64,000 nt of DNA from an uncultured Mucispirillum sp. (GCA_944325215.1 CALUZC010000016.1:4231-68230), one strand, 5' to 3'. Positions 17,215 to 62,810 are shown, counted from the first letter of the stretch. A program made the numbers and translations. Notes: generated by a model from the letters alone, not told the origin.

Positions 17215-20200
17215 TTATAGCAAAGTTAAAGTTATTACCAACTGCATAAATATCCCTGTTATATAAGCTTTCACCATATGTTGGAGGGACTAAATATTCA
17301 CCAGAGGAAAGCATTTTTAGTTTATAAGTAATAGTTTCATCATAATCATTATACATATTTAAATATATTATTGCTCTATCTTCTCTAAATTCATGAAACT
17401 CATAAGCCCTTGGAACATTTACACCATTTTTAGTAAGAATTTCTGTTCCACCAGGAATTAAATCTGTTATTGCTATCATGGTTTTTTCACCATAATGACT
17501 ATCATTTCTAGATATTTTTATAGATACTGTAACTTCATCGCCTTGTTTAGCACTAGTTATTTTCTCACCATTTTTATCATAAAATGTTTTTGTAATATTT
17601 AATCCCTTAGATTGTTTAGATGGCAACTCTTTATCATAACCAGTGGTCGTAATATGGTAATAATAGCCAACTGGATTATTCTCTTTAAATGAAACATTTA
17701 TTTCTTTTATTTTTGCATCAAACTCAGCTTTATTTTTATTTGTTTTATCAACAGTAATTCCTTTTCCTGCATCTGCATATGTAGGCATATCGTCTGCAGA
17801 TTTGCCCAAACCATAAAGAGCAGCAAATGAAAATGCACTAGAAAATGAATTATAATAACCTTCATTAATATCATCAAGTAACCGTTTTACTAATATTGGA
17901 TTCGCCTTAACAATATCTGGTGCATGGCGGCCTGCAAGGTAAATATATCTTGCAGTATTAGTTAATGAATCATCAAAATCGTATCTAAATAAATATTTAG
18001 TATATTCTGGAATTGATGACTCCAGTAATTTTCTACCTTTTTCTTCATTTTTATAAAGTATATATGTAGCACCCATATAAGCTGCTGTTAATGAGCTTTC
18101 CCAGTTATCATATTTTTTAGATAAATAATCTTCTAAAACATTTAATGCTCTTGCAGAAACAATACCATTTCTTGCAAGCAGATATGTGGCAAAAGCTATA
18201 TCTTGAGCATCTTCAAGATATTCAGGTCTGCTGTTGCTTATACTTTTTAAATAATCAATAGCATTATTATAAAGGCTGTTTGGCACATTATAACCAAGCT
18301 CTCTAGCATCAATTAAAAACTGTGTTGCATATATTGCTGGTAAATCATAAACATAGGAGCCACCATTCCAATATGTAAATCCATTTTTACCTTTTTGTCT
18401 TGATGTTAATTCTTTAATATAAGCTTCATAAACATCTTGGACTTCTTTTGTATTTACATTTTTATCAGTAGTTGCAAGCATTACAACAGGGTATATTTTA
18501 CTTGTAATTTGCTCTGTGCAGCCATATGGGTAGTATTTTAAATAACTTCCAATACCTGCAACCGCATACAATGGATTAGCTGATACCATAACTTCCCTTT
18601 TAGCAGCTAAGTTATGCATATTACGATTAGGAACTTTAAGAGAAGCATCTTTACTTTTAAATGAACCTACTGCAATTTCTGTTCTATATGGAACAACAGG
18701 ACGAATAGATGATGTTATTTTAGTCTGCAGTGGTTTTTCTAAATTTTTATTTTCAACTTTTAAGGTAATCTCACCACTTCCAAGCTCATCTGTTACTACA
18801 ACATCAAAAATAACTAAAGCCTCGCCACCTTCTTTTACTGTTACTGTCTTAAAGTTATCTCCAACTATATTAAAATGTTTAGATGGAACAGCTGTAATTT
18901 TAATATCTTCCTGTGCCTGCTTTCCTATAAGATTTGTTACTCCAACAGACATTCTAAACTTATCACCTTGAACTGCAGCATAAGGCATATTAGGTGTCAA
19001 AACAACCGGTGAACGTGATATAAATGAAGTTTCACTACTTCCTACACCATCTTTAGAAACAGCAACTGCCATAACTTTAATAGAACCATGAAAATGTGAT
19101 GGAACTTTTACTGTATATTTATTTTTATCACCTGCTTTCACATCAATAATTTTAGACCAAAAAACTGCAGGTTTTTCAACAACTCTTGCAAATGGATTTA
19201 GTCTTTTTGCTGCCATTTTTGCCATTACTGCATCTTCACCACCACCAACACCATACACATCGCTTAAAATATTATAATCTGGTAGAATTAAATCTGCAGT
19301 TTGAGTTGTTCTAACAGATAAGGCAACCTTTCTCATAAAATAATTTAATGGATCAGGTAATTTATAACCTGCCACTTGAAGAATACCTTCATCTACACCA
19401 TAAATAATAATTTTACCATTTTTAGCAGCACTGTATTCTACTGTTATATTATCTCCCGGCATAACTATCTCTGGTGTTTTTAAAGTTATATCTATTTTTC
19501 TTTTTGATTTATCAATAGAAAATGGCATTACTGCATAACTTAATGGCTTTGTAAAAATATCTTTAGAAGTAATATCTCGAACAAATGTTACATTAATATA
19601 TCCGTTACCTTCTAAATCATTTGGAATTTTTATACTTTGTGTCATGGTATTAGTATTACTTTTAAACCATTTATACGTATATACTTTTTCTTTTTCAATT
19701 GTTATTAAACCATAACCTGAATAAGGAGCTGTTATACTTAAGTTAACAGTATCGCCTGCCTTATACTCTTCTTTATCAAGTTTTAATAAAAGTTCTGATT
19801 CTTGTGCAACACTTGTATCAATATCTTCATTACCTGCAACATAATAATCAACCTTGCCTACAACAATATTATCTTCATTAATGACTTCATACACAAAGTC
19901 GCCTGCAATATTTGTTGGAAGATTTATATTTGTTCCCTGTTCTGTAATAGAAATATTACCACTATTTATAACATTATAACGTTTAACATTGCTGTATCTG
20001 TATCTACCATATGAATCTTTTATTAACTGGCTTGAATAAGTTATTTGAGATACTCTATACCGCATATCTGGCTTACTAATTTTATTTAAATTGCTATCTA
20101 CTGCAATAAAATTAACAGATGCTTTTTCATTAGTATTTAAAAAATATAAATAACTATCAGTAGTATATCCAACCAAATAATCAGATGGCGATACTTTTAC

Positions 20201-22900: not shown

Positions 22901-22916
22901 AATATAACTCCACTTA

Positions 22917-24959
22917 TTAAAACTCTTTACTACTTGCATCATTCAAAATATCGTTTGAAATTCTCCCGACTTTATCTGATACTTCTTTTGTTGAAACAGC
23001 TACTTTCAATGTGCTCTCTGTTACAGACTGTAACTCAAGAATTGAGTTTCTCATTTCCTGCATTTCCATTGTCTGTGTAGTAATTGCAGTATCCATATGA
23101 TTAATAGCTTCCACTAATGCATTTGTATTATCTGAAATCTCATGCAGATTTTTTTGTGTTCGTTCAGCAAGTTTTCTCACCTCATCTGCAACAACTGCAA
23201 AGCCTCTACCATGCTCACCAGCACGAGCTGCTTCAATTGCAGCATTTAATGCCAGCAAATCTGTTTGGTCTGCCACATCATGTATAACTTCAATAATACT
23301 TCTTATGGCTTCTGAATGCTCTACAACCTCTTTTGCTCTTGTATTCACTGATTCCATAGATTCATTTAAATGATTTAATGATGAAATATTCTTAGACAAA
23401 TGGCTGGACTGAGTTTGAGCACTACTTTCTAAGGTATCAACATGATTTTTTAATTCATCAGATGAACCCATAAGATTTTCACAGGTATTCATTGATATAT
23501 GAAGCATTTCACGTATTCTTTCACCCATCAAATTAATACCTTTTATTACAGATAATAATTCACCATCAAGCATACCTTCATCAATTGATGCTCTAAAATC
23601 ATTATTTGAATATTTAGCTACAACTTGTAAAATTTCCTGCATTGTAGTATTTAAGTTATTAAATGTTTCATTAATATTATCTTTTAACATATTTAAAGCA
23701 GGGTTGCTGGTATATGCATGAATTTTTACATTTAAAAATCCACTTTTAACTTTTGCTGATACTTCTAAAGATTCCTCTATTAGTTTTTTATCTTCATCTA
23801 ACCCTTTTTGCAGTAAATCCACCTGTTCTGTAATTGCATTTGAAACAGCTAATATCTCATCATTACTTTTTGATTTATATGATATTTTATTGCTTTTATC
23901 CCTATAGCTTATACTATCAAAAAAATCAAACAATGAAACAGTCATTTTTCTAAGTGGTATAATAATAGCAAATCTAATTACAATATTAATAGAAAAAAAT
24001 AATACTAATAAAAAGACGATAACACTTGCGAATATTATTGTTCTTAGAAATAAAATATCATTAATATAATCACTTTCTAAAGCACTAATAATAATATTCC
24101 AGCCTAAATCACTATGAAAAATATCTTGTGCTATATAGTCATTGTTATCATATTTATAGTGAAATGTTTGGTTTTCCTTAATTACATTATAAAAAGAAAG
24201 GCTGCTTGGTTTATCTGCTAAACTCCCTATTGTAAATGCATCATTTTTTTTATCAAAAGCCATAATATAGCCATTTGTTCCTATTTTAATACTTTCAATA
24301 CTTTCTCTTAAAACTTTATATGCAGGAGTAAGATTATAGCCTATAAATAATATACCTGTAACATTATTACTTGTATCTTTTATTGGCTCATAAAAAGTCA
24401 TATAGTCATTACCAAAAAGAGTTGCCTTACCTATATAAATTTCACCTTTCAAAACAAGATTATATGCAGGATGATTATGGTCTAATTTAGTCCAAATAGC
24501 ACGGTTGCCATCTGCATCCTTTAAAGATGTTGTTATTCGTATGAAATCATCACCATCTCTTGCAAATACAGTAGCAACATCAAATGTTGTAGATGAAAAT
24601 TTATCTAAAACTTCTGTATTACCAGTAAGTAAATTATCATATAAGTAATATTCTGGATAGCCATCAGCATTTTTTCCTCTTATTTCAAACTCGGTAGAAC
24701 TACCATAATTTGATTCAAGAAAATATTTAAATACAGACATGGAGTTTTTGCTGTTTTCTTTTAACTGACCTATTAAATTATTAAAAGAACTATTAACTAA
24801 AAGTGCAGCTTCTTTAATGTTCATTTCAGCACTAGACTGGGCACTTTTTGAAGCATAAATACTAATGAAAAAAAATAGCACTATTACTAAAATAGCAATT
24901 ATTGGTGCATTAGTAATAAGAATTTTTCTTGCAATTGAAGCATTTTTTAGAGTAAACAT
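22917..24959 (-). CDS. Methyl-accepting chemotaxis protein with a periplasmic double-Cache-like sensor
   Basis: AGGTGA SD. The N-terminal TM segment is followed by a periplasmic domain of about 270 aa, a second TM, a HAMP domain, and the conserved MCP signalling domain ([38 protein letters not shown]). Confidence 0.9.
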
Positions 24960-51349: not shown

Positions 51350-51949
51350 CTATTTTTCTCCTGCAATCATATTTTTAGTAAAAGATTTAGAATAAAGAGA
51401 TATATTTTTAAAACCACTGCACTCCATAGCATATTTTATCTCCTCATAACTATATTCTTTCATATTTTTAATAAATTTTTCCCAAAAAACATTTTTCTTT
51501 CTTAAAACTTCCATAAAAATATATATTTTGCTATTAGGTTTCATAATTCTATATATTTCTTTAAATGCATTATGTAAATCTTTCCAAAAGTATATGGATT
51601 CAAAAGATACAACAATATCAAAATAATCATTTTTATAGGGAGTATTAAGCACACTGCTTTTGTTTAAATATACCTGTTTATTTAATTTTTCTTGATTTAA
51701 AATACTGGCTTTTTCAATGCTTTTTTCTGATATATCAATACCATATATATTACAACTGCTGTATTTTTCACTTATTATTTTTATTGCTGAACCACCACCG
51801 CATCCTATATCTAATATATTATCACCATCATTCACATTTAAATAAGATATACCCCACAAATGAAGTTTTCTATGACCTTTATTCATCATTTTGATTAATA
51901 AACTGCCTAATTTACCTTTAGGGTTTCCAAAATTTTCTAAAATATACAT
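51350..51949 (-). CDS. Class I SAM-dependent methyltransferase
   Basis: Motif I ILDIGCGGGSAI. 199 aa. Confidence 0.8.
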   Translation of the reverse strand: MYILENFGNPKGKLGSLLIKMMNKGHRKLHLWGISYLNVNDGDNILDIGCGGGSAIKIISEKYSSCNIYGIDISEKSIEKASILNQEKLNKQVYLNKSSVLNTPYKNDYFDIVVSFESIYFWKDLHNAFKEIYRIMKPNSKIYIFMEVLRKKNVFWEKFIKNMKEYSYEEIKYAMECSGFKNISLYSKSFTKNMIAGEK

Positions 51950-52055: not shown

Positions 52056-52110
52056 AAATGAAAAAATAAATATATTTATAAGATTTTTAATATTTAAAAT
52101 ATTTTTTACT

Positions 52111-52133
52111 CCCAGACTGATAATCAGTCTGGG
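52111..52133. terminator. Inverted repeat cccagactga-taa-tcagtctggg, 8 nt past the stop of the lipoprotein gene. Putative terminator or stabilising hairpin.
   Basis: Perfect 10-bp stem. The flanking runs are A/T-rich but not a classic T-run. Confidence 0.4.
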
Positions 52134-52141
52134 AAATATTA

Positions 52142-53416
52142 TTAATTTGATTGTGCACTAGGTAAATTTGCAGCTGCAGCATTATAGTTATCTTTTAAAG
52201 TTGTGCCTGCTGCTGTTGGAGTAGTATCATTAAAAAATTTACTTACTACATTTGTAGTAAATGATGCACTATCTGTATTAAAATCACTGTAATTATTTAC
52301 TCCACTTTTTTGTAATTCTGTAATAATCACTGGTACTATACTTGCGTTTGCATAAGCTGCATCTGATGCTGGATTAAATGTTGCAAGTTTAGTTCCACCA
52401 GCTTTTATTAATGCTCTATAAAATTCTAATGCTCTATTTTTAGATTTTTGAGTTGCAGTAGTTGACTCATAACCTGTTAAGCCAGATAATATCATTGTCG
52501 GAAAAATCATTTCATCCATTCCACTTGTTGAGATTGCTTCTTCATCTTGATTTCCGCTTGAAGAACTTTCAGCATAACCATATTTTTCAAAAATACCAGT
52601 TAATTTAGCCATTAATGCCATCATAGTAGGAAGAGCACTTGGCATACTGCCACCGTTTGCTAAAATAGGCATAACTTTAAATTCTGGTGTTGGTTTATCA
52701 TAGTTTACAATATTACTAGAATAATCACCTTGAGCAATAAAAGCCTGTGCTATTTCATCAAGCATTGCTTTCTCATTTGGTAAAACATATTCGTTCTTAA
52801 TACCTTGAATACCAGTTGAACTGTTGTTTAAATAACCTATTAATGATGAATTAAGATAAACAATATTTGCTCTTGCATTTGCTCTTGCATTTGCACTTAT
52901 ATTAGTGGCATTAAGAGCAGATTGTAATGAATCAGAAAGTGTAATAATACTTTGACTGTTATCATTAACTCTTTTTAATGTTGTAATTAAAGTTGACCCA
53001 CTGCCAGACATAAATATCTGCATAACAGATTGTAAAAAACTACTAGTAGGTTGGCTAAGAATACTATATTTTAATACTTCAGCACTAACAGGATTCTCTG
53101 CGATTATTTTTGCAATTGCTGTTGCTATTTCTTCATTTGCTACTTCACCAATCCCTGAAGCTGCTGGCATTCCACCTCTGCCAGTAATGTTTTGAAGCAG
53201 ACTTTTAATATTTGTTTCTGCTTGGCTGGAAAATGTGCCAGTATAAGCTGCACTTCCTGTGTCATCTGTTACATATTTTTTAAATTCATTAGTAAAAGCA
53301 TCATCAACTTTATTAAGCTGCTCTTGGGATGTCTGTCCATCTGTAGGCTTTGTAGTATCTTCAGCACAACCTGCTACTAAAAATACTAAAAAAGCAAATA
53401 ATAAAAATTTTTTCAT
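52142..53416 (-). CDS. Ala/Ser/Thr-rich surface lipoprotein containing an in-frame tandem repeat
   Basis: AGAGGT SD. Lipoprotein signal MKKFLLFAFLVFLVAGCAED. Low-complexity A/S/T/N composition, with the repeat ANARANARAN. Confidence 0.6.
   Translation of the reverse strand: MKKFLLFAFLVFLVAGCAEDTTKPTDGQTSQEQLNKVDDAFTNEFKKYVTDDTGSAAYTGTFSSQAETNIKSLLQNITGRGGMPAASGIGEVANEEIATAIAKIIAENPVSAEVLKYSILSQPTSSFLQSVMQIFMSGSGSTLITTLKRVNDNSQSIITLSDSLQSALNATNISANARANARANIVYLNSSLIGYLNNSSTGIQGIKNEYVLPNEKAMLDEIAQAFIAQGDYSSNIVNYDKPTPEFKVMPILANGGSMPSALPTMMALMAKLTGIFEKYGYAESSSSGNQDEEAISTSGMDEMIFPTMILSGLTGYESTTATQKSKNRALEFYRALIKAGGTKLATFNPASDAAYANASIVPVIITELQKSGVNNYSDFNTDSASFTTNVVSKFFNDTTPTAAGTTLKDNYNAAAANLPSAQSN
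52865..52900. repeat. 12-bp tandem repeat (atttgctcttgc x2 plus a degenerate third copy) encoding (ANAR)n inside the lipoprotein CDS
   Basis: Read directly. The unit length is a multiple of 3, so copy-number change would keep the frame. Confidence 0.5.
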
Positions 53417-53487: not shown

Positions 53488-54210
53488 TTATTTTAAGTAA
53501 AAATCCACAGGGACTGTTACTTTTAAATATTCATTATAAGAATTATTGTTTACAGCATTTAAGCCAACAATTTTTTGTGCTGCTTTTAGTGCAGCATTAT
53601 CAAGTACAGTATAACCAGAGCTTTTAGTTATTTCTGCACCTTGTACCACCCCATTTTTTTCTATAGAAAATGTAATATTTGTAATACCTTCTGCATTTAA
53701 CCTTCTAGCCTGCTTAGGGTATTCTTTATAACGCTCCATCATATAAACAATATTGGCAGCAGCTTCGTTTTTCATATCTTTTATTTTACTTACTTCACTA
53801 CCTGCTACTGCTTTTTGTGATGATTTTGCAACTTTTACATTTTCATTTTTGGGTTTAATTTTCTTAACTTCCTTTTTATCTTTTTCTTTTCTTGTTTCCT
53901 GTTTTGTTTCCTCCTTCTTTTTAATTTCTTTGTAACCATTATAGATTATAAATTCGCTGTAATCTGCTAGTAACCTCCTTTTTTCTTGGTTATTTATTTT
54001 TATATACTCAGTAGTATCTATACTCTCCTTTAAAAACTCTGCTTTTGCTACTTCAAGCACTTTTTGCGATACAAAACTTATATTTAGTATAAAAAGTACT
54101 AAAAATAATATAATAAGCATAAAAAAAGATATTCTTTTGCTTTTTATATATTCTTTCTCTCTCTCAAAATAGTTATGTATTGGATATGCTTTTTTTGCTT
54201 TAATATTCAT
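53488..54210 (-). CDS. tonB: TonB energy-transducer (N-terminal TM, Lys/Glu-rich spacer, C-terminal TonB domain)
   Basis: TM segment FFMLIILFLVLFILNISFV, spacer KKKEETKQETRKEKDKKEVKKIKPK, and a C-terminal domain of about 90 aa. Confidence 0.8.
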   Translation of the reverse strand: MNIKAKKAYPIHNYFEREKEYIKSKRISFFMLIILFLVLFILNISFVSQKVLEVAKAEFLKESIDTTEYIKINNQEKRRLLADYSEFIIYNGYKEIKKKEETKQETRKEKDKKEVKKIKPKNENVKVAKSSQKAVAGSEVSKIKDMKNEAAANIVYMMERYKEYPKQARRLNAEGITNITFSIEKNGVVQGAEITKSSGYTVLDNAALKAAQKIVGLNAVNNNSYNEYLKVTVPVDFYLK

Positions 54211-54216
54211 AATTTT

Positions 54217-54603
54217 TTATTCCACTACATCAGTGCTTATTATAAATTTTCCATTCCTTTCTTTTTTTGCAATATCAATAATATTTACAAATGATTGAAA
54301 AGGTGCTGATTTATCAATATAAAGATTTAACATCTTATCAGTATTTGCATCTAATATACTTTTAATTTCTTCTTCTTTTATTAATGTATTATTATAATAA
54401 ACATTACCGTCCTTTGTAACGGATATTAAAATTTCCTGTGTCTGAGTTTCCTTACCTTCTGCCATTTTAGATGCAGGAAGTATTACATCAAGCACAGGTT
54501 TTGAAAATGTGGTAGTCATTATAAAAAATATTAAAAGCATAAATACAACATCTATTAATGGTGTCAAATCAATATTTATTTCTTCATCAATATCAAATTT
54601 CAT
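54217..54603 (-). CDS. exbD: ExbD/TolR biopolymer transport protein
   Basis: AGGTGA SD. N-terminus INIDLTPLIDVVFMLLIFFIMTTTF is the ExbD signature. 128 aa. Confidence 0.85.
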   Translation of the reverse strand: MKFDIDEEINIDLTPLIDVVFMLLIFFIMTTTFSKPVLDVILPASKMAEGKETQTQEILISVTKDGNVYYNNTLIKEEEIKSILDANTDKMLNLYIDKSAPFQSFVNIIDIAKKERNGKFIISTDVVE

Positions 54604-54611
54604 AATATCAC

Positions 54612-55220
54612 CTAACCATTAGCATTATGTTTTTTACAAATGTCTAATGCTCTGTAACTGTGCTCAATAGCTTCAAAATTAAATGCTCTAAATTTTAGCA
54701 TTAAATAGTAATATATAATAAGTACTGGTATAGCAACCGTTAGCCCCATAATAGTTGTAAGCAATGCTTCCCATATACCACTTGCAAGGGAAGCAGCATC
54801 TGGGCTTTGCTCTACTGCTATCACCTGAAATACGCCAACCATACCTAAAACTGTACCTAAAAGCCCTAATAGTGGGGAAATAACTGAAATTAACCTAAGC
54901 CATACTAATGATTTTGATACATGCTCAAAATTTCTATGGAAAAGGTATGCAACCTCACTTCTTATATCTTCAGAATGTTCTCCATGTATGTTTATTATAT
55001 CCCTAATAATAGCTATTAATGGATTATTGGTATTATTACACGCTGAAATAATATCATTACGGCTTTCATAATCTTTATTTAAAAAGTTATGTTTAAACCC
55101 ACGCCATACAATATTTAGGTATATTAATATTCTAAGCCCTATAAATAGAGCAGCTACAGCACATATAATTAAAGCTATACCTGCATAACCTATTTGATTA
55201 TAAATAGTTACAATATCCAT
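54612..55220 (-). CDS. exbB: ExbB/TolQ (MotA family) proton channel
   Basis: Three TM helices and a conserved C-terminal MotA/TolQ/ExbB region. Confidence 0.85.
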   Translation of the reverse strand: MDIVTIYNQIGYAGIALIICAVAALFIGLRILIYLNIVWRGFKHNFLNKDYESRNDIISACNNTNNPLIAIIRDIINIHGEHSEDIRSEVAYLFHRNFEHVSKSLVWLRLISVISPLLGLLGTVLGMVGVFQVIAVEQSPDAASLASGIWEALLTTIMGLTVAIPVLIIYYYLMLKFRAFNFEAIEHSYRALDICKKHNANG

Positions 55221-55223
55221 AAC

Positions 55224-56441
55224 CTATAACCCTAAACGGTTTACAAACCCTGTAAATACATTTTTTGCCATTTCTAAATCATTATTATCTGGGTGAGTTT
55301 GAGCTTCTAAAAGCCTTTCTTTTCTTTCTGGAGTCATAGGGTGGCTGTCCCCCATAAATTTACCCATATAATCAATTAATTTTTCATCTATTTTCCCAAG
55401 ACATAAAAAGCTGCCTAACACATTATTATTTTTGCCAGAGATTTTAAGCATATTTTCACTATCTCTTATACAGCCTTTTGCATGTGGTGAATCAGGATAA
55501 GCTCCAAGAGTACCAAATAACCCTATATTCATATTTTTAATAGAGTTTATAAACTTTTTACTTTTTGCATCAGGAAGCCCTCTATCTACCCAGTAACCTA
55601 TGGCAAGAAAATAATATTCATCTATGTTTTCAGGCAAATTATCAATAGAGCATATATCACAGTTTGGTATAACGCTTTTAACTGCTTCTGCTACTTTTTT
55701 AGTATTACCTGTTAGAGATGAATAAACCACAAGGCTTTTTCTATCCAGCGATTTTTCCAGTGCAAACCCATCTTTCATTTTATAAAATGATGTTTTTACA
55801 CTTTCTATAATCTGCCTGTTTTGTCTGCCTGCATAAACTGAAAAAATTAATCCGCCTGATTTATCAAAAAATAATACAGAACAGCTTTCAAGAGTCATAA
55901 ATGGCATAGTTGAAAAGGCAATACTGTATATATTATCTGCTTTAATATGACCACCTAAAGCAGATTCACCCATTATATTATAATATCCATGAGCATTTGT
56001 GCCTTCATCTATTTTTGTAGATATTTCAAAAGCAGAGCCTTTATACTCTACTATAACTGTTGCTTTTTCCCAAGTGGCAAGTTCTTTCCAAATCATTTCA
56101 AAATGACTGCCTTTTGTAATAGTGCATATTTCTTTAGGCAGTGCATAACATACTTCAAGGTCACTTACACCATACATCTTTGCAAAAGCAGAAATAGTAA
56201 AGGGTTTTTTCTCCTGTAGTAAATTTGGTAAATCCTGTTTTAGTTTTTCAAACCCTAGCACTTTTTCTTCTATTATCTCCTCTATTTGAGGTTTATAATC
56301 AAAAGGTAATGGTGGTTTCCCACCTGCCATTTTATTTTCACTATTAGGGTGTTTTTCACCATGAGAATGTTCCCCTTTATGACCGTGGTTTTTTCCATGC
56401 TGATGTTTATGACCGTGTTGATTTTCTTCTTTATGGCTCAT
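55224..56441 (-). CDS. Three-part fusion: His-rich N-terminal tail + ChuX/HutX-like haem-binding domain + flavodoxin-like domain
   Basis: N-terminus MSHKEENQHGHKHQHGKNHGHKGEHSHGEKH. The middle (HGYYNIMGESALGGHIKADNIYSIAF...SVLFFDKSGGLIFSVYAGR) aligns with E. coli ChuX (HGYFNLRGKHGMSGHIKAEN...SILFFNKEGSAMLKIFLGRD). The C-terminus (LVVYSSLTGNTKKVAEAV...) is a flavodoxin fold. Confidence 0.7.
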   Translation of the reverse strand: MSHKEENQHGHKHQHGKNHGHKGEHSHGEKHPNSENKMAGGKPPLPFDYKPQIEEIIEEKVLGFEKLKQDLPNLLQEKKPFTISAFAKMYGVSDLEVCYALPKEICTITKGSHFEMIWKELATWEKATVIVEYKGSAFEISTKIDEGTNAHGYYNIMGESALGGHIKADNIYSIAFSTMPFMTLESCSVLFFDKSGGLIFSVYAGRQNRQIIESVKTSFYKMKDGFALEKSLDRKSLVVYSSLTGNTKKVAEAVKSVIPNCDICSIDNLPENIDEYYFLAIGYWVDRGLPDAKSKKFINSIKNMNIGLFGTLGAYPDSPHAKGCIRDSENMLKISGKNNNVLGSFLCLGKIDEKLIDYMGKFMGDSHPMTPERKERLLEAQTHPDNNDLEMAKNVFTGFVNRLGL

Positions 56442-56456
56442 ATTATCTCCTTTTTA

Positions 56457-57890
56457 TTAAACTGCCTGTTGCTTTAAACTGTCACTAAATGGCAGTCTAA
56501 TAGCATACTGGCATATATTATTTATTAATTCTAAATCATGGGTAATAACTACTACAGCCACCCCTTTATTCGCTAAATTTTGCAAAATATTTGTTATACG
56601 CATCATATTTCTTCCATCAAGCCCACTGGTTGGCTCATCAAGTATTATAATGCTTGGCTCTTTTGCAACGGCACAGGCTATTACAAGACGCTGTTTTTCT
56701 CCACCTGAAAGTGACTGCGGATGCCTTTCTTTTAAATGATATAAATCAAACTGGTTAAGCAGATTATTTGTTATTTCTTTTTTTTCATCTTCTGTAATAT
56801 TATTATGAGAAACATCTACACTCATATATATTTCATCATAAGTAGATTTCATATAAAGCTGAAAATCTGCATTTTGCAGCACAAGTGATGCAGTTTTTAC
56901 AAGTATTTTTTTATCTATCTCTTTATTATTTATAGTTATTTTTCCCGTAATATTTTTATTTATACCCGTTAAAAGTTTTGCAAGTGTGGTTTTACCTGCC
57001 CCATTTTCACCAAGAATGGCAGTTACTCCAAAAGGAACAGTAAATGATGCATTATTAAAAAGATTTTCTTTACCCTTATAGTTAAATGAAAGGTTTTCAA
57101 TATTAATAATATTTTTACTGCTGTTTTTATAATCTGCCAGCGTGCTGCGATTATCAGTAATTTCTATATCTCTTAAACCATATATTTTTCTAAATTCATT
57201 ATTAAGTAAAATACTAAAATCACCTTCTTTTACTATTTCACCTTTACTCATAACTATAAATCTATCTGCTATATCTTTTGTCCAGTAAAGCCTGTGGTCT
57301 ACAATTAAAATGGCATAGCCTTGTAATTTTAAATATTTTATTTTCTCTGCTAATTCATCAGTTGATTCCACATCTAAATTAGCAGTAGGTTCATCTAAAA
57401 TAATGACTTTTGCTTTTTGTAATATTATACCTGCAAGCCCAACTTTTTGTTTCTGCCCTTCTGATAAATCATTTACAGATGATGATAAAATATGCTGTAT
57501 TTTAAATTCATGAGCTGTTTTATTTATTTCTTTTTTTATTGTATCTGCATCTAATCCCTTGCACTCTAAAGCAAATGCAAGCTCATCATCCACATTTAAT
57601 GCGAAAAACTGCTGTTCTGGGTCTTGAAAAAGTGAGCCTGTATAATTTGAAAGCTCTCCTATGGTTTTTTCTTTTGTATTTTCATTACAGATAAATACAT
57701 CACCACTTAATTCGCCTTTATAATAATGAGGGCAAAGCCCATTAATAAGCCTAATAAGTGTAGTTTTGCCACATCCGCTGACACCAGTACAAACCACCAA
57801 TTCACCAGATTTAACTGATAAATTAATATTTTTTACAGCCTCTTTATTTTGATATGGGTATTTGTATGTTACATTTTCTAACCTTATCAT
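56457..57890 (-). CDS. ECF-type transporter ATPase, fused duplicated A/A' subunits
   Basis: Two ABC cassettes: GVSGCGKTT ... LSEGQKQKV and GENGAGKTT ... LSGGEKQRL. 477 aa. The stop overlaps the T-component start. Confidence 0.85.
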   Translation of the reverse strand: MIRLENVTYKYPYQNKEAVKNINLSVKSGELVVCTGVSGCGKTTLIRLINGLCPHYYKGELSGDVFICNENTKEKTIGELSNYTGSLFQDPEQQFFALNVDDELAFALECKGLDADTIKKEINKTAHEFKIQHILSSSVNDLSEGQKQKVGLAGIILQKAKVIILDEPTANLDVESTDELAEKIKYLKLQGYAILIVDHRLYWTKDIADRFIVMSKGEIVKEGDFSILLNNEFRKIYGLRDIEITDNRSTLADYKNSSKNIINIENLSFNYKGKENLFNNASFTVPFGVTAILGENGAGKTTLAKLLTGINKNITGKITINNKEIDKKILVKTASLVLQNADFQLYMKSTYDEIYMSVDVSHNNITEDEKKEITNNLLNQFDLYHLKERHPQSLSGGEKQRLVIACAVAKEPSIIILDEPTSGLDGRNMMRITNILQNLANKGVAVVVITHDLELINNICQYAIRLPFSDSLKQQAV

Positions 57891-58690
57891 CTATGTAAAC
57901 TCCTTAAGCTTTCAGGCACTTCAATATAGCTTTGTACAAAAAATGCACTTACTAATACTGTTGCAAAACTTATAAGAAGCAATAAATCATTTATAGAAAA
58001 CGATAATCTCTTATACGGTGTTACTTTTACATCGTTTCCTATTCCTTTTAATTCAGCAGCTATTCCCAATTCTTCTGAAGCTCTTAAAGACCTAAAAAGC
58101 AGTGGCATAAAAAGGTAGCGTCCCATTTTTACAGGTTGCTTTAAAAGAGTAATAAATTTTACTTCAATACCCCTTGTTGCAAGCGACTGCATTATCTGCT
58201 TTATATCGTTTATAAAAGCAGGAATAAACCTTATCATTACAGCTACTGGCAGGTAGATAAATAATGGCAGATTAAAACTTTTTAGTGCTGTTAATATACT
58301 TTGTATATTTGTAGTAAAAGCTAAGGGAAGCACTACATTTACCATAGTGACCATACGCATAAAAGGAACTGTTATGGCAAAATATGACCTGCCCTGCATA
58401 AAATTTGTAAAATAATTTATTATATATATGCTTGTAACAGCGATTATCATAATAATAGTTACAAAAAGATAAGTAAGAACCATTACTTTTGGTTTTCTCA
58501 TATATAATGCATATATAAATGAAGCAGCTAAAAGCACTATTTGAGCATATATACTGCTTAATATAATAGCAGCAAGCGAAGTCAGTGCTGTAATAATAAG
58601 CTTTGTTCTAACATCTATTAAATATAAGCCTTTTAATTGAATATTATTTTTAACAGATAAACTTGTATTAACTGCGAACGATTCCTGCAT
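57887..58690 (-). CDS. ECF transporter transmembrane (T) component, CbiQ/EcfT family
   Basis: 267 aa with 5-6 TM helices and a C-terminal coupling region, RSLRASEELGIAAELKGIG. The ends overlap with neighbouring genes on both sides. Confidence 0.75.
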   Translation of the reverse strand: MQESFAVNTSLSVKNNIQLKGLYLIDVRTKLIITALTSLAAIILSSIYAQIVLLAASFIYALYMRKPKVMVLTYLFVTIIMIIAVTSIYIINYFTNFMQGRSYFAITVPFMRMVTMVNVVLPLAFTTNIQSILTALKSFNLPLFIYLPVAVMIRFIPAFINDIKQIMQSLATRGIEVKFITLLKQPVKMGRYLFMPLLFRSLRASEELGIAAELKGIGNDVKVTPYKRLSFSINDLLLLISFATVLVSAFFVQSYIEVPESLRSLHR

Positions 58691-59213
58691 ACCTTAACTC
58701 CTTAACAGCTTTTATTCCTGTATATAACCCAATTATAGCCCCTAGATATCCTATAGCAATAATAGGTATAACAGCATATACAATTTCAGGTGTTTCTCTC
58801 ATAACCATATAAGCTAAAAACATAGAAAGCACTCTGTAAGATAAATCAAAAGCTGCTACACCAATAATTGGAGCATATTTATTCTTCATACCACCAAAAA
58901 GAAGTATAAAAAATTCACCAATAAATGAAGCCATAAACATTCCTAAAGAGGTGGAAGCTTCTGCCCCCATTAAAAGCAGTGATACTATTAATGATACAAA
59001 TGTAAAAAGCATAATCGTTCCACTTTTTCTTACCTTGTAAAGCATAACTATGAAAAAAGTAGTAAATATAAGGTTTTTAATAAGCAGAGTAACAGGGTTC
59101 ATTCCACCACCTGCTAAAGCAACAACCATTGTAATAACTTTTGCAGCAGCTGCAAAAACACCTATTGTTACAAGCTCTTGTATACTCCAGTGATGTTTTA
59201 AGTTTTTATACAT
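58668..59213 (-). CDS. Putative ECF substrate-capture (S) component of unknown specificity (haem inferred from context)
   Basis: 181 aa with 5-6 TM helices and a size typical of S components. It is positioned immediately upstream of the T component and ATPase. Confidence 0.55.
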   Translation of the reverse strand: MYKNLKHHWSIQELVTIGVFAAAAKVITMVVALAGGGMNPVTLLIKNLIFTTFFIVMLYKVRKSGTIMLFTFVSLIVSLLLMGAEASTSLGMFMASFIGEFFILLFGGMKNKYAPIIGVAAFDLSYRVLSMFLAYMVMRETPEIVYAVIPIIAIGYLGAIIGLYTGIKAVKELRYAGIVRS

Positions 59214-59229
59214 TTTTTCTCCTTTATTC

Positions 59230-61320
59230 TTAAAAAGCTGCCGAAAATTTTACGGCTCCATATAAGCCCGGTTCATATATATCTACAGATGTTTTATATA
59301 GTGTATTCAACAGGTTATAAACTTCTGTAGACAAGCTATATTGTCTATCCTTACCAAAATCTACACTTATTGCTATATTTGCAGTGCCCCATGGTGCATA
59401 ATATAAGTCTGATGTAAACTCTGAATGGATAGAATCAAGACTGTCTATGGTTTCACTTGAAAACCTGCTAAATAAATCAATGGATAAATCAACATAATCA
59501 TTAAATGTATGTAAATAAGCAAGACCTGCCCTGCCTGATACTAAAGGAACTCCTGTTTTCCATGTATAAACCCCATTATCACTATATCTTCTTTGCATTA
59601 TAGTAAGTGAAGTATATGGTTTTAGCCCAATAGGCGATGTATAAGATAAAGAAAGCTCTGCTCCATGAGTTAATGCGTTTGATACATTTTTATATTTTGT
59701 AGCAGAAGAACCTGTACTAACTGGCACTTGTGCTATATAGTTATCTGCCAGTGATACAAAGTACACAGCATCTAAACCAACACCGTAATCATTATATCTA
59801 ATACCAAACTCAAAATTATTGCTTGTTTCAGATTTTAAATCAGGGTTAGGGTAAATGGTGCCACCACCCATTGATGATAATAGATACCGTTCCTGTAAAT
59901 TAGGTGAACGAAAGCCTTGTGAAAAATTAAACCTTATACTAAAATTTTCTATTCCAGACCACATAATACCTGCTGCAAATACTGGAGCGTTGGTTGATGA
60001 TATACCTGTATTTCCTATATCTTCAACACTTAATGGCGTTGAACTTCCTGTAATTTTATCTATTCTAACCCCTGCTGCTTTTTCCATATTTGCAATGTTA
60101 TATGTCCATCTTACACCATAGAATAATGTAAAATCCAAAGGCAGGTAAGATTCAGCTTGAGCATATAAAGCATGTATCTGTTCATAACCATAGTTTTTTA
60201 CATGTTTATTGTAATTCATAACATCTAAAATAGTGCTTGTGGAATCAACACTTGTATCAGCATCTAGAATATTATAATTAAAATCATAACCTGCTATAAT
60301 ATATGTATGGTCACTTATTGCCCAGTCTGTTTGAAGCTGCAACCCCCACTGGTTATTATAATTATCTGCATAGTTATCCATTGTAGCAGGCATAAATACT
60401 ACATTTGGGTCAAGCTCCACATGGTTATGCATTTTTTTATGGCTTTGCTGGTAAAATAAATCAAGCCTTAGTTTTGGCATAAAAGATACAGCTTCTTTTA
60501 CTTCAAAAAATAATGCTGCTTTTTGGCGAGACCATAATGGTAAATCTACATAAAATTTTTCATATCCTACAGCCTGACTGCCTGAAGATATATCTGAAGT
60601 AAAATAATCATAACTTGCACCTAGTTTATAGTTATCATTAAAATTATACGCTAAATATGCACTATAATTTTGCTGTTCAAAAGCAGAATACGGCACTAAA
60701 CCAATAGGTGTTCTTAGCTGCTGCTGCATATTATTTGATGCTGTAACTCTGTATTCTACTCCATGAGTTTTACCAAAAATAGAAGCAGATTCAGAATGCC
60801 CTTGAGAAGCACCGTTATAGGAAAGATTAATAGAGCCTTCTATTGGTTTTTTACCACCTTTTTTTGTGATGATATTAATAACACCACCAATAGCGTTGGA
60901 GCCATAAAGCACAGATGATGGCCCACGAATAATTTCTATACGTTCAATTAATGCAGTATCTATCATTAATGCTGTGCCGTCCATAGATTTATTTTCAACT
61001 ATCTGTTGTCCATCAATTAATATTAAAGTTCTATTAACTCCCTCACCACGAAGAGATATTCTTTTTAGCCCCTGCCCTCCAGAATTTGATATCTGCACTC
61101 CAGGAACATCTTGTAAAAGTTCACCAACTGTTCTAGCTGATGATTTTTTAATATCTTCTTCTGTTACTATAGAAACAGAAGAAGGCACTTCTAAAAGCTC
61201 TTTTTCAACTTTTGTGGCTGTCACCTTTACTGCCGTTGTTTTAATATGGTTTTCTTCTTGAGCATAACTATTAAAACTTACAAATAATATTAAAACAGTA
61301 CAAACGACTATCTTTATCAT
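59230..61320 (-). CDS. TonB-dependent outer-membrane receptor
   Basis: Signal peptide ...SYA/QEE. Plug-domain motifs (VTATKVEKE...VPGVQISNSGG...ISLRGEG...ILIDGQ). Barrel of about 600 aa ending in the aromatic terminus ...FSAAF. Confidence 0.85.
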   Translation of the reverse strand: MIKIVVCTVLILFVSFNSYAQEENHIKTTAVKVTATKVEKELLEVPSSVSIVTEEDIKKSSARTVGELLQDVPGVQISNSGGQGLKRISLRGEGVNRTLILIDGQQIVENKSMDGTALMIDTALIERIEIIRGPSSVLYGSNAIGGVINIITKKGGKKPIEGSINLSYNGASQGHSESASIFGKTHGVEYRVTASNNMQQQLRTPIGLVPYSAFEQQNYSAYLAYNFNDNYKLGASYDYFTSDISSGSQAVGYEKFYVDLPLWSRQKAALFFEVKEAVSFMPKLRLDLFYQQSHKKMHNHVELDPNVVFMPATMDNYADNYNNQWGLQLQTDWAISDHTYIIAGYDFNYNILDADTSVDSTSTILDVMNYNKHVKNYGYEQIHALYAQAESYLPLDFTLFYGVRWTYNIANMEKAAGVRIDKITGSSTPLSVEDIGNTGISSTNAPVFAAGIMWSGIENFSIRFNFSQGFRSPNLQERYLLSSMGGGTIYPNPDLKSETSNNFEFGIRYNDYGVGLDAVYFVSLADNYIAQVPVSTGSSATKYKNVSNALTHGAELSLSYTSPIGLKPYTSLTIMQRRYSDNGVYTWKTGVPLVSGRAGLAYLHTFNDYVDLSIDLFSRFSSETIDSLDSIHSEFTSDLYYAPWGTANIAISVDFGKDRQYSLSTEVYNLLNTLYKTSVDIYEPGLYGAVKFSAAF

Positions 61321-62720
61321 AAACTCACCTTTTCACCTGTTAAATTATTACTACTGTTAAACTGCAAAGTCAGTTTAATATATTCCTGCAAAAGCTGTGA
61401 AAGGTTTACAAACCAAAACTGACCTGCAAGTGTTAAAATAATTTTATTATTTTCATATTTAATAACACCTGCATTTTCCCACTGTTTTAATAATCTGCTG
61501 CAAATATCAGTAAGTGGAAGGTTATATTTATTTTCTAAATATGCCAAATCTAAATAACCTGTTTCAAAATATTCACTTATTTCTTTATACATGCTGTAAT
61601 TTTCACCTGGTATGCTTATACCCATAATTGGTTTTACGCCATTTTTCACAGCTGCTAAATAGCCTTGATAATCACGCAGTATCATATAACTGTGACCATT
61701 AATATTTCCACCTGCTCCTGCACCAAAAGAAAGGCAGCTGGCATAACCACGAGCAAGCCTGTTATATATATTTCTTTCTCTTGTAGTTCTTTGCCAATGG
61801 TTTACACTAATTCTTGTGTATAGTGCCTTCTGCATAAGCTCTACACTTTTTATAAACAGCTCTGTTTTCTCTTTAACATTTAAGGCAGGGTTCATACTGC
61901 CATCTGCAATACGTTTACCAAGAGGGGTGTTTGGAAATACATTTAACTGGTAGCAGTCAAACCCATCTATTTCTAAACTTTGAGCAAGTTTTATATCATC
62001 AACCCAAATATCCATAGTCTGATTAGGAAACCCATATATTAAATCAAGCACAACAGCAGCCTGATTATATTCTTTTATCATATTAATTCTTTCTATAATT
62101 GTATCTCTGTCACTTCTTCTACCCATTGAGCGTCTTAAATCAGTATTAAAACTTTGCACTCCTAAAGAAAACCTGTTTACACCACCTTGAAGGTATGCTT
62201 CAACTTTTTCTTTTGTCATATTAGAAATTCTACCTTCCATAGTAATTTCACAATCATTGGCAAGAGGAAATGTATTATGAATATAAGTTAAAAGCCTTGA
62301 TATATCTTCCACTTCTAAGGCTGTAGGTGTGCCACCACCAAAATAAAGTGCATTTATAGGTTTTGTTTTAAATGCAGTAGTATTTTCCCAAAGTTTAATT
62401 TCCTGAATTAAAACATCTGTATATATTCTACTCTGCTCTTTTCTATAAGGCTGATTATAAAATCCACAGTATAAACAGTGGGTTTCACAAAATGGAACAT
62501 GAATATATGCAGCAGTTCTATTATTCCTTTCTTGGTTTAAAACACTTTTTAAAACTTCCTGAGTCTGCTCTTTTGGTGCAAAGCTATCCATAAGTCCTGC
62601 ATGCACTGCCGACTTTTTACTAAAAGCATCAACAATAACATTATCACTTTCATTTACACAATATCTTTCAAAATTATCTTCTGGATTTATATTTTCTATT
62701 TTTTTATGAAAAGTATCCAT
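61317..62720 (-). CDS. HemN-family radical SAM enzyme, HutW/ChuW-like (candidate anaerobic haem-degrading methyltransferase)
   Basis: I chose the start at ATG 62720 (AAGGAAG SD). Radical SAM cluster motif CETHCLYCGF, with a HemN_C-like C-terminal domain. It is the first gene of the operon that contains the TonB-dependent receptor and the ChuX-like gene. Confidence 0.75.
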   Translation of the reverse strand: MDTFHKKIENINPEDNFERYCVNESDNVIVDAFSKKSAVHAGLMDSFAPKEQTQEVLKSVLNQERNNRTAAYIHVPFCETHCLYCGFYNQPYRKEQSRIYTDVLIQEIKLWENTTAFKTKPINALYFGGGTPTALEVEDISRLLTYIHNTFPLANDCEITMEGRISNMTKEKVEAYLQGGVNRFSLGVQSFNTDLRRSMGRRSDRDTIIERINMIKEYNQAAVVLDLIYGFPNQTMDIWVDDIKLAQSLEIDGFDCYQLNVFPNTPLGKRIADGSMNPALNVKEKTELFIKSVELMQKALYTRISVNHWQRTTRERNIYNRLARGYASCLSFGAGAGGNINGHSYMILRDYQGYLAAVKNGVKPIMGISIPGENYSMYKEISEYFETGYLDLAYLENKYNLPLTDICSRLLKQWENAGVIKYENNKIILTLAGQFWFVNLSQLLQEYIKLTLQFNSSNNLTGEKVSL

Positions 62721-62793
62721 GCTCACTTCCTTTATATTGATTTTATTTCTCAATAACATATACATCATTTAATAATTATTTGCAAGAGATTTT

Positions 62794-62810
62794 TTGATAT
62801 TTATTATCAA
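62794..62810. promoter_or_regulatory. Imperfect AT-rich palindrome ttgatatttattatcaa in the divergent promoter region. Candidate Fur-like operator.
   Basis: Read directly. 13/17 positions are symmetric and it resembles GATAAT-type Fur half-sites. Specificity is low in an AT-rich genome. Confidence 0.2.

Follow-up and report, generated by a model that had tools for sequence, protein, structure and literature searches.

The DNA analysed here, called the window throughout, is a stretch of 64,000 nucleotides from Mucispirillum (Deferribacterota); its closest genomes are those of Mucispirillum, at 93-100% amino-acid identity, which rules out the spirochaete origin that had been implied by an earlier reading of the sequence alone (the sequence-only reading). 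Nine minus-strand ORFs lie at 53488-62768, and in the order of the operon they encode a HutW/ChuW protein, a TonB-dependent receptor, the S and T components and the fused AA' ATPase of an ECF transporter, a fusion protein of the form His-rich::HutX::flavodoxin, ExbB, ExbD and TonB. Family HMM searches (Pfam, NCBIfam) bore out the assignments of all nine ORFs. The features of the locus are as follows.

62795 to 62809, strand unassigned: Fur-box-like palindrome, reading TGATAATAAATATCA on the minus strand, predicted iron-responsive operator
61317 to 62768, minus strand: hutW/chuW, class C radical SAM methyltransferase, predicted anaerobic haem ring opening (TIGR04107, Radical_SAM)
59230 to 61320, minus strand: TonB-dependent outer-membrane receptor, predicted haem uptake (Plug and TonB_dep_Rec_b-barrel)
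58668 to 59213, minus strand: ECF S component for substrate capture, predicted haem-specific (PF09605, predicted S-component fold)
57887 to 58690, minus strand: ECF T component of the EcfT/CbiQ type (PF02361 CbiQ, 70.3 bits)
56457 to 57890, minus strand: fused ECF ATPase A-A' with two ABC_tran domains
56322 to 56441, minus strand: His-rich tract at the N-terminus of the fusion protein (10 of its first 45 residues are His)
55785 to 56225, minus strand: HutX/ChuX domain, cytoplasmic haem carrier, fusion residues ~73-219
55254 to 55742, minus strand: HmuF/FldH-type flavodoxin domain, fusion residues ~234-396
54612 to 55220, minus strand: exbB (PF01618, 89.9 bits)
54217 to 54603, minus strand: exbD (PF02472, 83.8 bits)
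53488 to 54210, minus strand: tonB (TonB_C PF03544, 59.2 bits; TIGR01352, 54.7 against 27.1)
52142 to 53416, minus strand: possible accessory gene for an all-alpha lipoprotein, 71 bp downstream of tonB, membership uncertain

Neighbouring ORFs overlap or are at most 16 bp apart, the junctions being, in order, -4, +16, -23, -4, +15, +3, +8 and +6 bp; the overlap is 23 bp between the S and T genes and 4 bp between T and AA'. It had been proposed that ten genes are packed here on the minus strand, with gaps of at most 16 bp, up to position 62810. The packing was confirmed, and all the ORFs lie where they had been placed, but the window holds nine of them rather than ten, and the operon does not extend as a coding region to 62810: the furthest possible start of the hutW ORF is 62768, and translation more likely begins at 62720 (M17), preceded by the RBS AAGGAAG. 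Position 62810 lies upstream of the ORF and coincides with the Fur-box-like site. Among all 49 listed ORFs of at least 120 aa in the 64-kb window, together with the overlapping S ORF, Pfam searches found neither Peripla_BP_2 nor FecCD, so that a hidden binding-protein importer is ruled out within the window and the previously claimed absence of a binding protein and of an HmuU/V-type permease holds over that range. The lipoprotein gene that follows tonB is restricted to Mucispirillum, and a strong hairpin (52110-52134) was seen just past its stop codon. A downstream methyltransferase gene was rejected as a member of the cassette because it lacks conservation, being found only in the same species and in Bilophila (28% identity).

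The operon is not peculiar to this genome. A related set of 80 loci was compiled from Mucispirillum (Deferribacterota), Desulfovibrionaceae (including Bilophila wadsworthia) and Sutterellaceae, in which each part was scored only where the locus was long enough to test for it. HutW was present in 64/64 testable loci, the receptor in 71/71, T in 77/77, AA' in 76/76 and the flavodoxin in 69/69, while exbB (51-67% identity across phyla) was found in 61/68, exbD in 57/63 and the divergent tonB in 51/61. The neighbourhood comparison that had been suggested as a check, on the co-occurrence of ChuW with ECF genes, thus gave HutW in every one of these loci that could be tested. Gene order was collinear in all 60 loci having at least nine of the ten parts, and since the core parts also occur in all testable loci, the arrangement cannot be put down to chance. 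In most of these loci HutX and the flavodoxin are encoded by two genes, which is why the gene count in the other phyla is ten. In Sutterella additional ABC genes lie downstream; they form an ABC-2 exporter pair and were ruled out as a haem importer. The recurrence of similar cassettes in gut bacteria of three phyla suggests spread by horizontal transfer, and the near identity of their organisation is consistent with transfer driven by the niche.

The HutW protein scores 497.9 bits against the curated equivalog model TIGR04107 (cut-off 400) and 78.1 bits against Radical_SAM PF04055, and stays below the cut-offs of its paralogues (HemW, 174.9 against 205.4; HemN, 172.9 against 325). It carries the [4Fe-4S] motif CxxxCxxC as C94-E-T-H-C98-L-Y-C101 and a GGGTP motif at residue 144; its nearest solved structure is HemN (1OLT), and the HemN-type SAM-binding core is present. 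A radical SAM protein of the HemW/HemN type had been named in the sequence-only reading as the finding that would speak against its proposal; in this comparison the protein scores as ChuW/HutW instead. It might still be argued that the operon serves the salvage of intact haem as a cofactor, with the radical SAM protein acting as a HemW-like chaperone and iron release not being the main purpose, as HutW, HemW and HemN are homologous, M. schaedleri has been cultured in hemin-supplemented medium (PMC5285517), and imported haem could serve both uses. We regard this as very improbable, given the scores on either side of the equivalog and paralogue cut-offs, the constant company of an HmuF-type anaerobilin reductase, which would be without a role unless the ring were opened, and a Fur-type operator that fits iron acquisition. 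HutW is instead predicted from its sequence to convert haem to anaerobilin, releasing the iron.

The receptor is less readily placed. Its best NCBIfam model is TonB-hemin TIGR01785, and because 196.5 bits falls below the cut-off of 316.85, the score does not place it among the haem receptors; its PDB matches lie mostly over the plug domain and are non-discriminating. Bracken et al. in 1999 reportedly described haem receptors as carrying a conserved His in the stretch that separates their FRAP and NPNL boxes. In the operon's receptor the corresponding FRSP (residue 470) and NPDL (residue 492) boxes are kept across 71 orthologues, in which no conserved His was found between the two boxes and Met484, which lies between them, is 99% conserved.

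The fusion protein begins with the His-rich tract, which varies within Mucispirillum from 0 to 15 His, in some cases with Cys, and is absent outside the genus. The HutX domain that follows scores 138.3 bits against TIGR04108 (cut-off 110), is also matched by PF06228, and aligns over residues 64-227 with the PDB entries 2PH0, 5EXV, 2OVI and 6U9J (E 1e-22 to 2e-26). The flavodoxin domain belongs to PF12641 (Flavodoxin_3, 163 bits) and aligns with the haem-bound FldH structure 8G64 at E 1.4e-24 (residues 234-394 against 4-164 of the chain), the helical cap included, whereas the BilS model gives 95, below its cut-off of 155. An alignment of 75 sequences, made up of the window's domain and its cassette homologues, showed that the columns of the SxTGNT FMN phosphate loop (residue 241) and of the HP..D part of the A..HP...D linker (A380, H383, P384, D388) are at least 97% conserved; His367, which aligns with the proximal FldH haem ligand His134, lies in a column that is 59% His. 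Both the linker and this ligand have been described in a study of the Fusobacterium nucleatum HmuF/FldH family, whose members cycle between oxidised FMN and the hydroquinone, traffic haem and reduce anaerobilin (PMC10404700).

The flavodoxin had earlier been taken as the electron donor of HutW. On such an account it would act mainly as a one-electron donor to the HutW [4Fe-4S] cluster and the module would be redox self-sufficient; flavodoxin is indeed the reductant of ChuW (PMC10114669), and the domain is encoded in the operon, occurs in all 69 testable loci and keeps its FMN phosphate-binding loop. Nevertheless we consider it unlikely. The domain is a Flavodoxin_3 homologue of HmuF/FldH in which the cap that binds haem is retained together with its His; in HmuF and FldH the FMN semiquinone is not stabilised, and these proteins donate hydride to anaerobilin and carry haem (PMC10404700). 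Flavodoxins also failed to reconstitute Vibrio cholerae HutW, which worked with NADPH directly (PMC10035031). Because of this homology and the known chemistry of the family, a donor role is not the best supported one, and the domain is predicted to be a haem- and FMN-binding anaerobilin reductase of the HmuF/FldH type. In a distant locus (L081), which also encodes a receptor, a radical SAM protein, S and AA', Flavodoxin_3 and HutX are fused in the reverse order; fusion of the two domains in two independent ways and in opposite orders supports the joint haem trafficking and anaerobilin reduction proposed for them.

Iron control was also examined. The site TGATAATAAATATCA has one mismatch to TGATAATNATTATCA and precedes the likely hutW start by ~75 bp, but the number of Fur boxes in this AT-rich window, 6 where 2.5 would be expected, does not exceed chance. 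In most related loci of the three phyla, hutW is preceded at a distance of 13-142 bp by boxes with 0-3 mismatches, often the sole such site in 20 kb of the locus, and the match is perfect in Sutterella, Parasutterella, Dakarella and Mesosutterella. As the count in the window is not significant by itself, the case for iron regulation is built on this conservation across loci. A FUR-family gene lies directly upstream of the cassette in Bilophila; it was seen only there, and was rejected as a cassette member. A DtxR-type repressor is also encoded in the window, which counts against settling on Fur; a Fur-type iron control of the operon is put forward as a prediction.

The only Pfam family matched by the S component is PF09605 (35.3 against a gathering score of 28.7), and its score against the MptD family model TIGR02185 of NCBIfam is 26.2, far below the cut-off of 76.45; judged by these scores it is a peripheral member of PF09605 (Trep_Strep). 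It is predicted to have the six-helix fold of ECF S components, and its likeness to the vitamin and metal S families is structural only, at 8-16% identity. Membership in a family such as BioY, RibU or CbiM, which had been set out as evidence against a haem transporter, was looked for and only PF09605 was matched: there was no Pfam or NCBIfam match at E<=0.01 to BioY, RibU, CbiM, ThiT, FolT and the like, so that the vitamin and metal families were rejected, and a profile search of PDB sequences (maximum E 10) returned no match at all. Among the named distant matches looked up from a profile search of 1.84 billion representatives, all were 'MptD family' or hypothetical proteins, and LhaS, SiaF and the L. 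sakei S component were absent from them. The subfamily is tight (116 representatives at 50% identity) and has as invariant motifs GGGMNP in loop 1, R139-E140-x-P142 and a C-terminal ELRxAGIVR; no invariant His was found across it, and the conserved Met38, Tyr156 and Arg139 are candidates for haem ligands. Next to the S gene lie the T gene and two ATPase domains, which is the arrangement of a dedicated Group I ECF transporter. The AA' ATPase scores 245.2 against TIGR01166 cbiO (211.8) and 310.2 against ECF_ATPase_1, just below the cut-off of 315, and has Walker A motifs at residues 36 and 294 and signature motifs at 142 and 394.

No characterised substrate was found for the wider PF09605 family, and the contexts of its other members are mixed (an NRPS cluster, an mpt-like locus and a CobN/corrinoid-like locus), so that family membership alone does not imply haem. 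It could thus be supposed that the ECF transporter imports a corrinoid, a metal-free porphyrin or another iron chelate, with the haem importer encoded elsewhere. The occurrence of PF09605 members in the NRPS cluster and in a locus with CbiK, CobN and Peripla_BP_2 would agree with this, as would the receptor score below the haem-family cut-off and the lack of an invariant His in the S component. Non-haem cargo nevertheless seems quite unlikely, for the genes of S, T and AA' always lie between the receptor gene and hutX in the 80 loci, as overlapping or nearly abutting ORFs; no riboswitch was found anywhere in the window at Rfam gathering thresholds, which speaks against a cobalamin system; the Fur boxes point to iron control; and no second importer is present in the locus or the 64-kb window. 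Furthermore, in two distant loci (L082 and L083) the S relatives stand in the order receptor, HmuY, S, CbiQ, AA', HmuY and HemS/ChuX, and distant members of the S family thus keep a haem context with different partners.

With the gene content and compactness of the locus, the HutW, HutX and HmuF-like families, the S fold, the three-phylum cassette and the conservation of the Fur boxes established, the operon probably serves the iron-regulated anaerobic use of haem iron across both membranes of a diderm cell, as judged from sequence and gene context. In this system a dedicated ECF transporter most likely replaces the usual binding-protein ABC importer. Haem would be taken over the outer membrane by the TonB-dependent receptor, with energy from the operon's own ExbB-ExbD-TonB, and would then be captured directly from the periplasm by the membrane-embedded S component, with no soluble binding protein. 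ATP hydrolysis by EcfT/EcfAA' would cause the S component to topple and free haem into the cytoplasm, where the HutX domain of the fusion protein may receive it and hand it over to HutW. HutW would methylate and open the porphyrin by radical SAM chemistry, yielding Fe2+ and anaerobilin, and the fused HmuF-type FMN domain may bind the tetrapyrrole and reduce anaerobilin to a less toxic product. The core of the sequence-only reading, a self-contained module for anaerobic haem uptake and degradation with an ECF importer, is thereby supported by the protein families, the context of the 80 loci, the Fur boxes and the relatives linked to HmuY and HemS.

Of the host's iron sources in the gut, haem is the main one. 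To our knowledge, Gram-negative bacteria bring it over the inner membrane by binding-protein ABC systems, and import of haem by ECF transporters has been shown only in a few Firmicutes. A wider proposal, to which we give an even chance, is that in the ten-gene cassette of the three phyla the S component takes periplasmic haem, possibly handed over at the receptor/TonB complex, making soluble binders unnecessary, and that it would be both the first Gram-negative ECF iron or haem importer and a new haem-binding S family lacking an invariant His. If this is true, a conserved receptor-fed route would extend ECF iron acquisition to diderms and give the proteins annotated as 'MptD family putative S component' a concrete functional hypothesis. 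Inflammation-associated gut bacteria are among the hosts of the cassette, including Mucispirillum, Bilophila wadsworthia, Desulfovibrio and Sutterella, and the system would, if real, account for their use of haem without oxygen, as when there is bleeding or the diet is rich in red meat.

Compared with PF09605 at large, the operon's S component has in common the six-helix layout and a basic C-terminal KEL+xAG motif, but forms its own tight subfamily with its own invariant motifs. The known ECF haem importers, all of Firmicutes, are LhaSTA of Staphylococcus lugdunensis, SiaFGH of group A Streptococcus and the L. sakei system, whose S components are mutually dissimilar in sequence (PMC7299338). 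They resemble the present case in being dedicated ECF transporters within haem-acquisition loci, with iron regulation that is predicted for the Mucispirillum operon too; in LhaSTA the S component is the high-affinity haem binder (PMC7299338). However, the hosts of these three systems are monoderms, with no outer membrane, TonB-dependent receptor or Ton complex, and the systems are tied to Isd/Shr surface receptors and not to radical SAM degradation.

ECF-type haem import coupled to a TonB-dependent receptor had been held to be without example in diderms. For S-type transporters in general such a pairing has a precedent, as in some Gram-negatives BtuB feeds the S-component-type B12 transporter BtuM with no binding protein (PMC6072759), although BtuM transports cobalamin by itself, with no ECF T/AA' module, and no degradation enzymes are linked to it. 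For haem, no published description of a diderm ECF haem importer was found in the literature on ECF together with anaerobic haem breakdown, HmuY, Mucispirillum or TonB, a coverage outside which the 2009 ECF census of Rodionov et al. falls. The closest known counterparts include the anaerobic haem loci F. nucleatum hmuTRUVWF, E. coli O157 chu and V. cholerae hut, whose breakdown proteins are ChuW/HutW/HmuW, ChuX/HutX and HmuF or ChuY. They share with the Mucispirillum operon the TonB-dependent receptor, the ChuW/HutW equivalog, the HutX carrier, the HmuF-type flavoprotein and iron control, which for Mucispirillum is predicted (PMC10404700, PMC12670364). They differ from it at the inner membrane, where hmu, chu and hut use a periplasmic binding protein and a type II ABC importer (HmuTUV, ChuTUV) and the Mucispirillum operon has ECF S, T and AA', as well as in its HutX::HmuF-like fusion and in the Ton complex encoded in the same operon.

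The operon at 53488-62768 on the minus strand is likely to encode an ECF-based system for haem uptake and degradation, and in this the sequence-only reading was largely right, while its host, its gene count and the role it gave to the flavodoxin need revision. The families of its nine ORFs, all on the minus strand, were assigned with Pfam and NCBIfam models and agree with the gene identities proposed before.

Genes of the operon, in operon order (scores in bits)
61317-62768, minus strand: hutW/chuW, ChuW/HutW radical SAM methyltransferase (TIGR04107, 497.9 against a cut-off of 400; C94xxxC98xxC101 present)
59230-61320, minus strand: TonB-dependent receptor (plug and barrel; best model TonB-hemin, score under its cut-off)
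58668-59213, minus strand: S component, the membrane protein for substrate capture (PF09605, 35.3 against 28.7)
57887-58690, minus strand: T component, CbiQ type (70.3)
56457-57890, minus strand: AA' ATPase (two ABC domains, above the cbiO subfamily cut-off; two Walker A motifs)
55224-56441, minus strand: three-part fusion protein (His-rich tract, HutX domain, Flavodoxin_3 domain)
54612-55220, minus strand: ExbB (89.9)
54217-54603, minus strand: ExbD (83.8)
53488-54210, minus strand: TonB (TonB_C, 59.2)

The junctions, in operon order, measure -4, +16, -23, -4, +15, +3, +8 and +6 bp, bearing out the close packing claimed earlier (overlaps, or gaps of at most 16 bp) with gaps of +3 to +16 bp and overlaps of -4 to -23 bp, and AG-rich ribosome-binding sites lie ahead of most of the ORFs. 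The minus-strand gene set and order of the operon first described as ten genes stand, the count in the window being nine, and the end then placed at 62810 falls in the promoter region, outside any gene. It was also found that the radical SAM protein, which passes the TIGR04107 cut-off, stays below those of the paralogues HemW (174.9 against 205.4 bits) and HemN (172.9 against 325 bits), supporting its assignment to ChuW/HutW. The true start of hutW is probably M17 at 62720, which AAGGAAG precedes.

Using the S-component profile, 80 genomic loci were fetched and searched by tblastn with the window proteins. The gene order was constant (hutW, receptor, S, T, AA', hutX, flavodoxin, exbB, exbD, tonB), and collinearity held in every locus that had nine or all ten of the parts (60/60). 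Among loci long enough to test, we found HutW in 64/64, the receptor in 71/71, the T component in 77/77, AA' in 76/76, HutX in 68/72, the flavodoxin in 69/69, ExbB in 61/68, ExbD in 57/63 and TonB, a divergent protein of which tblastn may miss copies, in 51/61. The cassette arrangement is conserved far beyond chance. The hosts include Mucispirillum and other Deferribacterales, Desulfovibrionaceae (Bilophila wadsworthia ATCC 49260, Desulfovibrio, Mailhella and a Lawsonia-like bin) and Sutterellaceae (Sutterella, Parasutterella excrementihominis, Dakarella, Mesosutterella and Duodenibacillus). Between phyla the S components share 44-56% and the ExbB proteins 51-67% identity, and almost all of the hosts are associated with the gut, a pattern that horizontal transfer of the entire cassette would fit. 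L050 and L059, bins assigned to Oscillospiraceae and Acutalibacteraceae, hold a Sutterella-like copy and were probably mis-binned. The closest loci are from Mucispirillum, which is placed in Deferribacterota; one of them (L001) shows 97-100% identity for each of the cassette proteins, another (L002) is M. schaedleri, so that the spirochaete framing given before does not hold.

Further genes adjoin the cassette in some hosts. In five Sutterella-type loci (L018, L019, L022, L024, L032) an ABC-2 exporter pair (DrrA-like ATPase and permease) and an AMP-binding enzyme lie downstream, followed by another radical SAM gene, distantly HemN/HemW-like and 29-31% identical to HutW. Relative to the S gene these downstream genes are at about +5.6 kb and +9.4 kb, and they might belong to the system, for instance by exporting a tetrapyrrole. 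The window has, a short way past the end of the cassette (51350-51949, minus strand), a gene for a class I SAM methyltransferase of ~200 aa (Methyltransf_11). Such a gene also follows the cassette in Bilophila wadsworthia (L045 16115-16747, 28% identity) and was not seen beside it in the other loci; its presence in both hosts is probably a coincidence. The remainder of the window holds ordinary chromosomal genes, including those for EF-G, glycerol kinase with GlpABC-like genes, a chemoreceptor, PriA, MurJ, MutS2, Era, a XerC/D-like recombinase and a PBP1c-like protein adjoining an alpha-2-macroglobulin. The last two, at 14896-22942 (minus strand), are a 1913-aa bacterial alpha-2-macroglobulin gene and an overlapping gene for a PBP1c-like transglycosylase/transpeptidase, which we take to be the known A2M-Pbp1C pairing.

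The only family of Pfam and NCBIfam matched by the S component was PF09605; models for BioY, RibU, CbiM, ThiT and FolT gave no match, and a profile search of PDB sequences up to an E-value of 10 returned nothing. The fold predicted for it is the ECF S-component fold. Among 1.84 billion cluster representatives a profile search had just 116 matches at E <=0.001, and the S component thus belongs to a small, tight subfamily. Within it G35-G-G-M38-N-P40 in loop 1 and R139-E140-x-P142 in loop 5 are invariant, as are Y156 and a basic C-terminal ELRxAGIVR motif, and there is no invariant His. In a topology based on the usual arrangement of S components and on the positive-inside rule, loops 1 and 5 with their invariant clusters are predicted to face the periplasm, and one may speculate that Met38, Tyr156 and Arg139 take part in haem ligation and propionate binding.

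In more distant members of the S family the haem context is kept and the partner genes are changed, which adds independent support for a link of this lineage to haem. L081, on a metagenomic 'Deltaproteobacteria' contig, matched the profile at E 4e-24; it combines genes for a receptor, a radical SAM protein, S and an AA' ATPase with a Flavodoxin_3::HutX fusion (8152-9192) whose domains are reversed relative to the Mucispirillum fusion. In two MAGs (L082 and L083, 4798-15388; profile E ~2e-4) a distant PF09605 ECF system accompanies a TonB-dependent receptor, several HmuY-like lipoproteins and HemS/ChuX, in the order receptor, HmuY, S, CbiQ, AA', HmuY, HemS/ChuX. Such loci appear to form another type of ECF haem locus in diderms, one that lacks the radical SAM enzyme. 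Remote PF09605 proteins occur inside an NRPS cluster (L084 7001-7588), in an mpt-like locus that has three paralogues and also encodes an ABM-family protein and ABC exporters (L085 1258-10960), and adjoining a Peripla_BP_2/FecCD importer and CobN/ChlI/ChlD-like chelatase genes (L086 2949-14543). PF09605 as a whole is therefore not haem-specific and probably spans several metallophore or tetrapyrrole substrates, and the haem assignment is restricted to the S-component clade of the cassette.

As had been claimed, no binding-protein importer accompanies the operon, Peripla_BP_2 and FecCD being absent from the locus and from all window ORFs of at least 120 aa. This search covered the 64-kb window, and a haem importer of the usual type may be encoded in another part of the genome. 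No riboswitch, of the cobalamin type or otherwise, was found in the window. With its best match to a haem-receptor model falling below the cut-off and its PDB matches lying mostly in the plug domain, the receptor has a substrate beyond what sequence can fix; FRAP-like and NPNL-like boxes are conserved, and between them an invariant Met-Gly-Gly-Gly stands in place of His.

The fusion protein begins with 10 His in 45 residues (56322-56441, minus strand), followed by the HutX domain (TIGR04108, 138.3 bits against 110) and Flavodoxin_3 (163 bits). In a search of PDB sequences residues 234-394 matched 8G64 (E 1.4e-24), the haem-bound FldH, a paralogue of F. nucleatum HmuF (PMC10404700). His367 aligns with His134, the haem ligand of FldH, SxTGNT is kept as the phosphate loop for FMN, and A147/H150/P151/D155 of the FldH linker correspond to A380/H383/P384/D388. 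Across 75 aligned sequences, the window's flavodoxin domain and its cassette homologues, conservation reaches at least 97% in the phosphate loop and in HP...D and 59% in the His column, which agrees with the report that most, not all, homologues keep the haem-ligand His (PMC10404700). The flavodoxin had been proposed as electron donor to the radical SAM cluster; the 8G64 match and His367 are HmuF-type features that favour another main role, to which electron donation, if it occurs, would be secondary. As HmuF and FldH do not stabilise a semiquinone, deliver haem to HmuW and act on anaerobilin as hydride-donating reductases (PMC10404700), the best-supported role of the domain would be haem trafficking and anaerobilin reduction, a job that in E. 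coli is shared by ChuX/ChuS and ChuY. The HutX::flavodoxin fusion is confined to Mucispirillum and one other Deferribacterales bin, and hosts elsewhere have ten genes because the two are separate there. Two independent fusions with opposite domain orders, in Mucispirillum and L081, are classic evidence that HutX and the flavodoxin act together. The N-terminal tract has anything between 0 and 15 His across the Mucispirillum loci (L001-L009), in some with Cys (HCHGK repeats), and is absent outside the genus, other phyla included; it is thus a lineage-specific accessory that might bind metal or haem.

The palindrome TGATAATAAATATCA at 62795-62809 is one position off the 7-1-7 Fur consensus. In the AT-rich window 6 Fur-like sites within two mismatches were found against 2.5 expected, which is not above expectation, so this single site proves little. 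In most loci of all three phyla there is a box with 0-3 mismatches at 13-142 bp upstream of hutW, a perfect match in nine Sutterellaceae loci, and in many loci no other such site occurs within 20 kb. Bilophila has a FUR-family gene directly upstream of hutW (L045 5704-6165; L012 2288-2746); in other genera none was seen beside the cassette. By this comparison, iron-responsive control of the cassette appears well supported. A DtxR/IdeR-type iron-dependent repressor with a C-terminal FeoA/SH3-like domain (2171-2923, minus strand) is a second candidate iron regulator, and the box upstream of hutW may be read by more than Fur.

The analysis shows the gene identities, the S-component fold, the structure of the operon and its conservation. 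The route that we infer from them, with haem as substrate moving inward, would begin with the receptor taking haem across the outer membrane, driven by the operon's own ExbB-ExbD-TonB. The S component would capture periplasmic haem directly, and ATP-driven toppling of S on T/AA' would bring it into the cytoplasm, where it might be handed to the HutX domain; HutW radical SAM chemistry would then open the ring and release Fe2+, and the HmuF-type domain would reduce the anaerobilin. The prediction has good support, is experimentally tractable and bears on prominent gut pathobionts.

Single steps of this route have precedents: LhaSTA and further ECF haem importers of Firmicutes (PMC7299338), the Gram-negative pair of BtuB and the S-component-like BtuM, in which BtuB supplies BtuM with no binding protein between them (PMC6072759), and the HmuW/HmuF pair (PMC10404700). 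According to the LhaSTA paper no iron-acquiring ECF systems were known before 2020, and the examples it cites are all from Firmicutes (PMC7299338). We found no literature linking an ECF transporter with ChuW, HutW, HmuW or anaerobilin, and no published haem uptake in Mucispirillum; earlier mention elsewhere is possible in both cases. Two recent haem reviews (2024, 2025) do not mention an ECF haem importer, and we came upon no published account of one in a diderm. Rodionov et al. in 2006 reportedly predicted TonB-dependent receptors beside Nik/CbiMNQO ECF systems. The finding extends known parts and brings no new principle: each component class was already known, the S-component subfamily is uncharacterised, and what is new is the combination, in diderms, of an ECF importer replacing the binding-protein ABC system, a TonB-dependent receptor that supplies it and degradation by a radical SAM enzyme.
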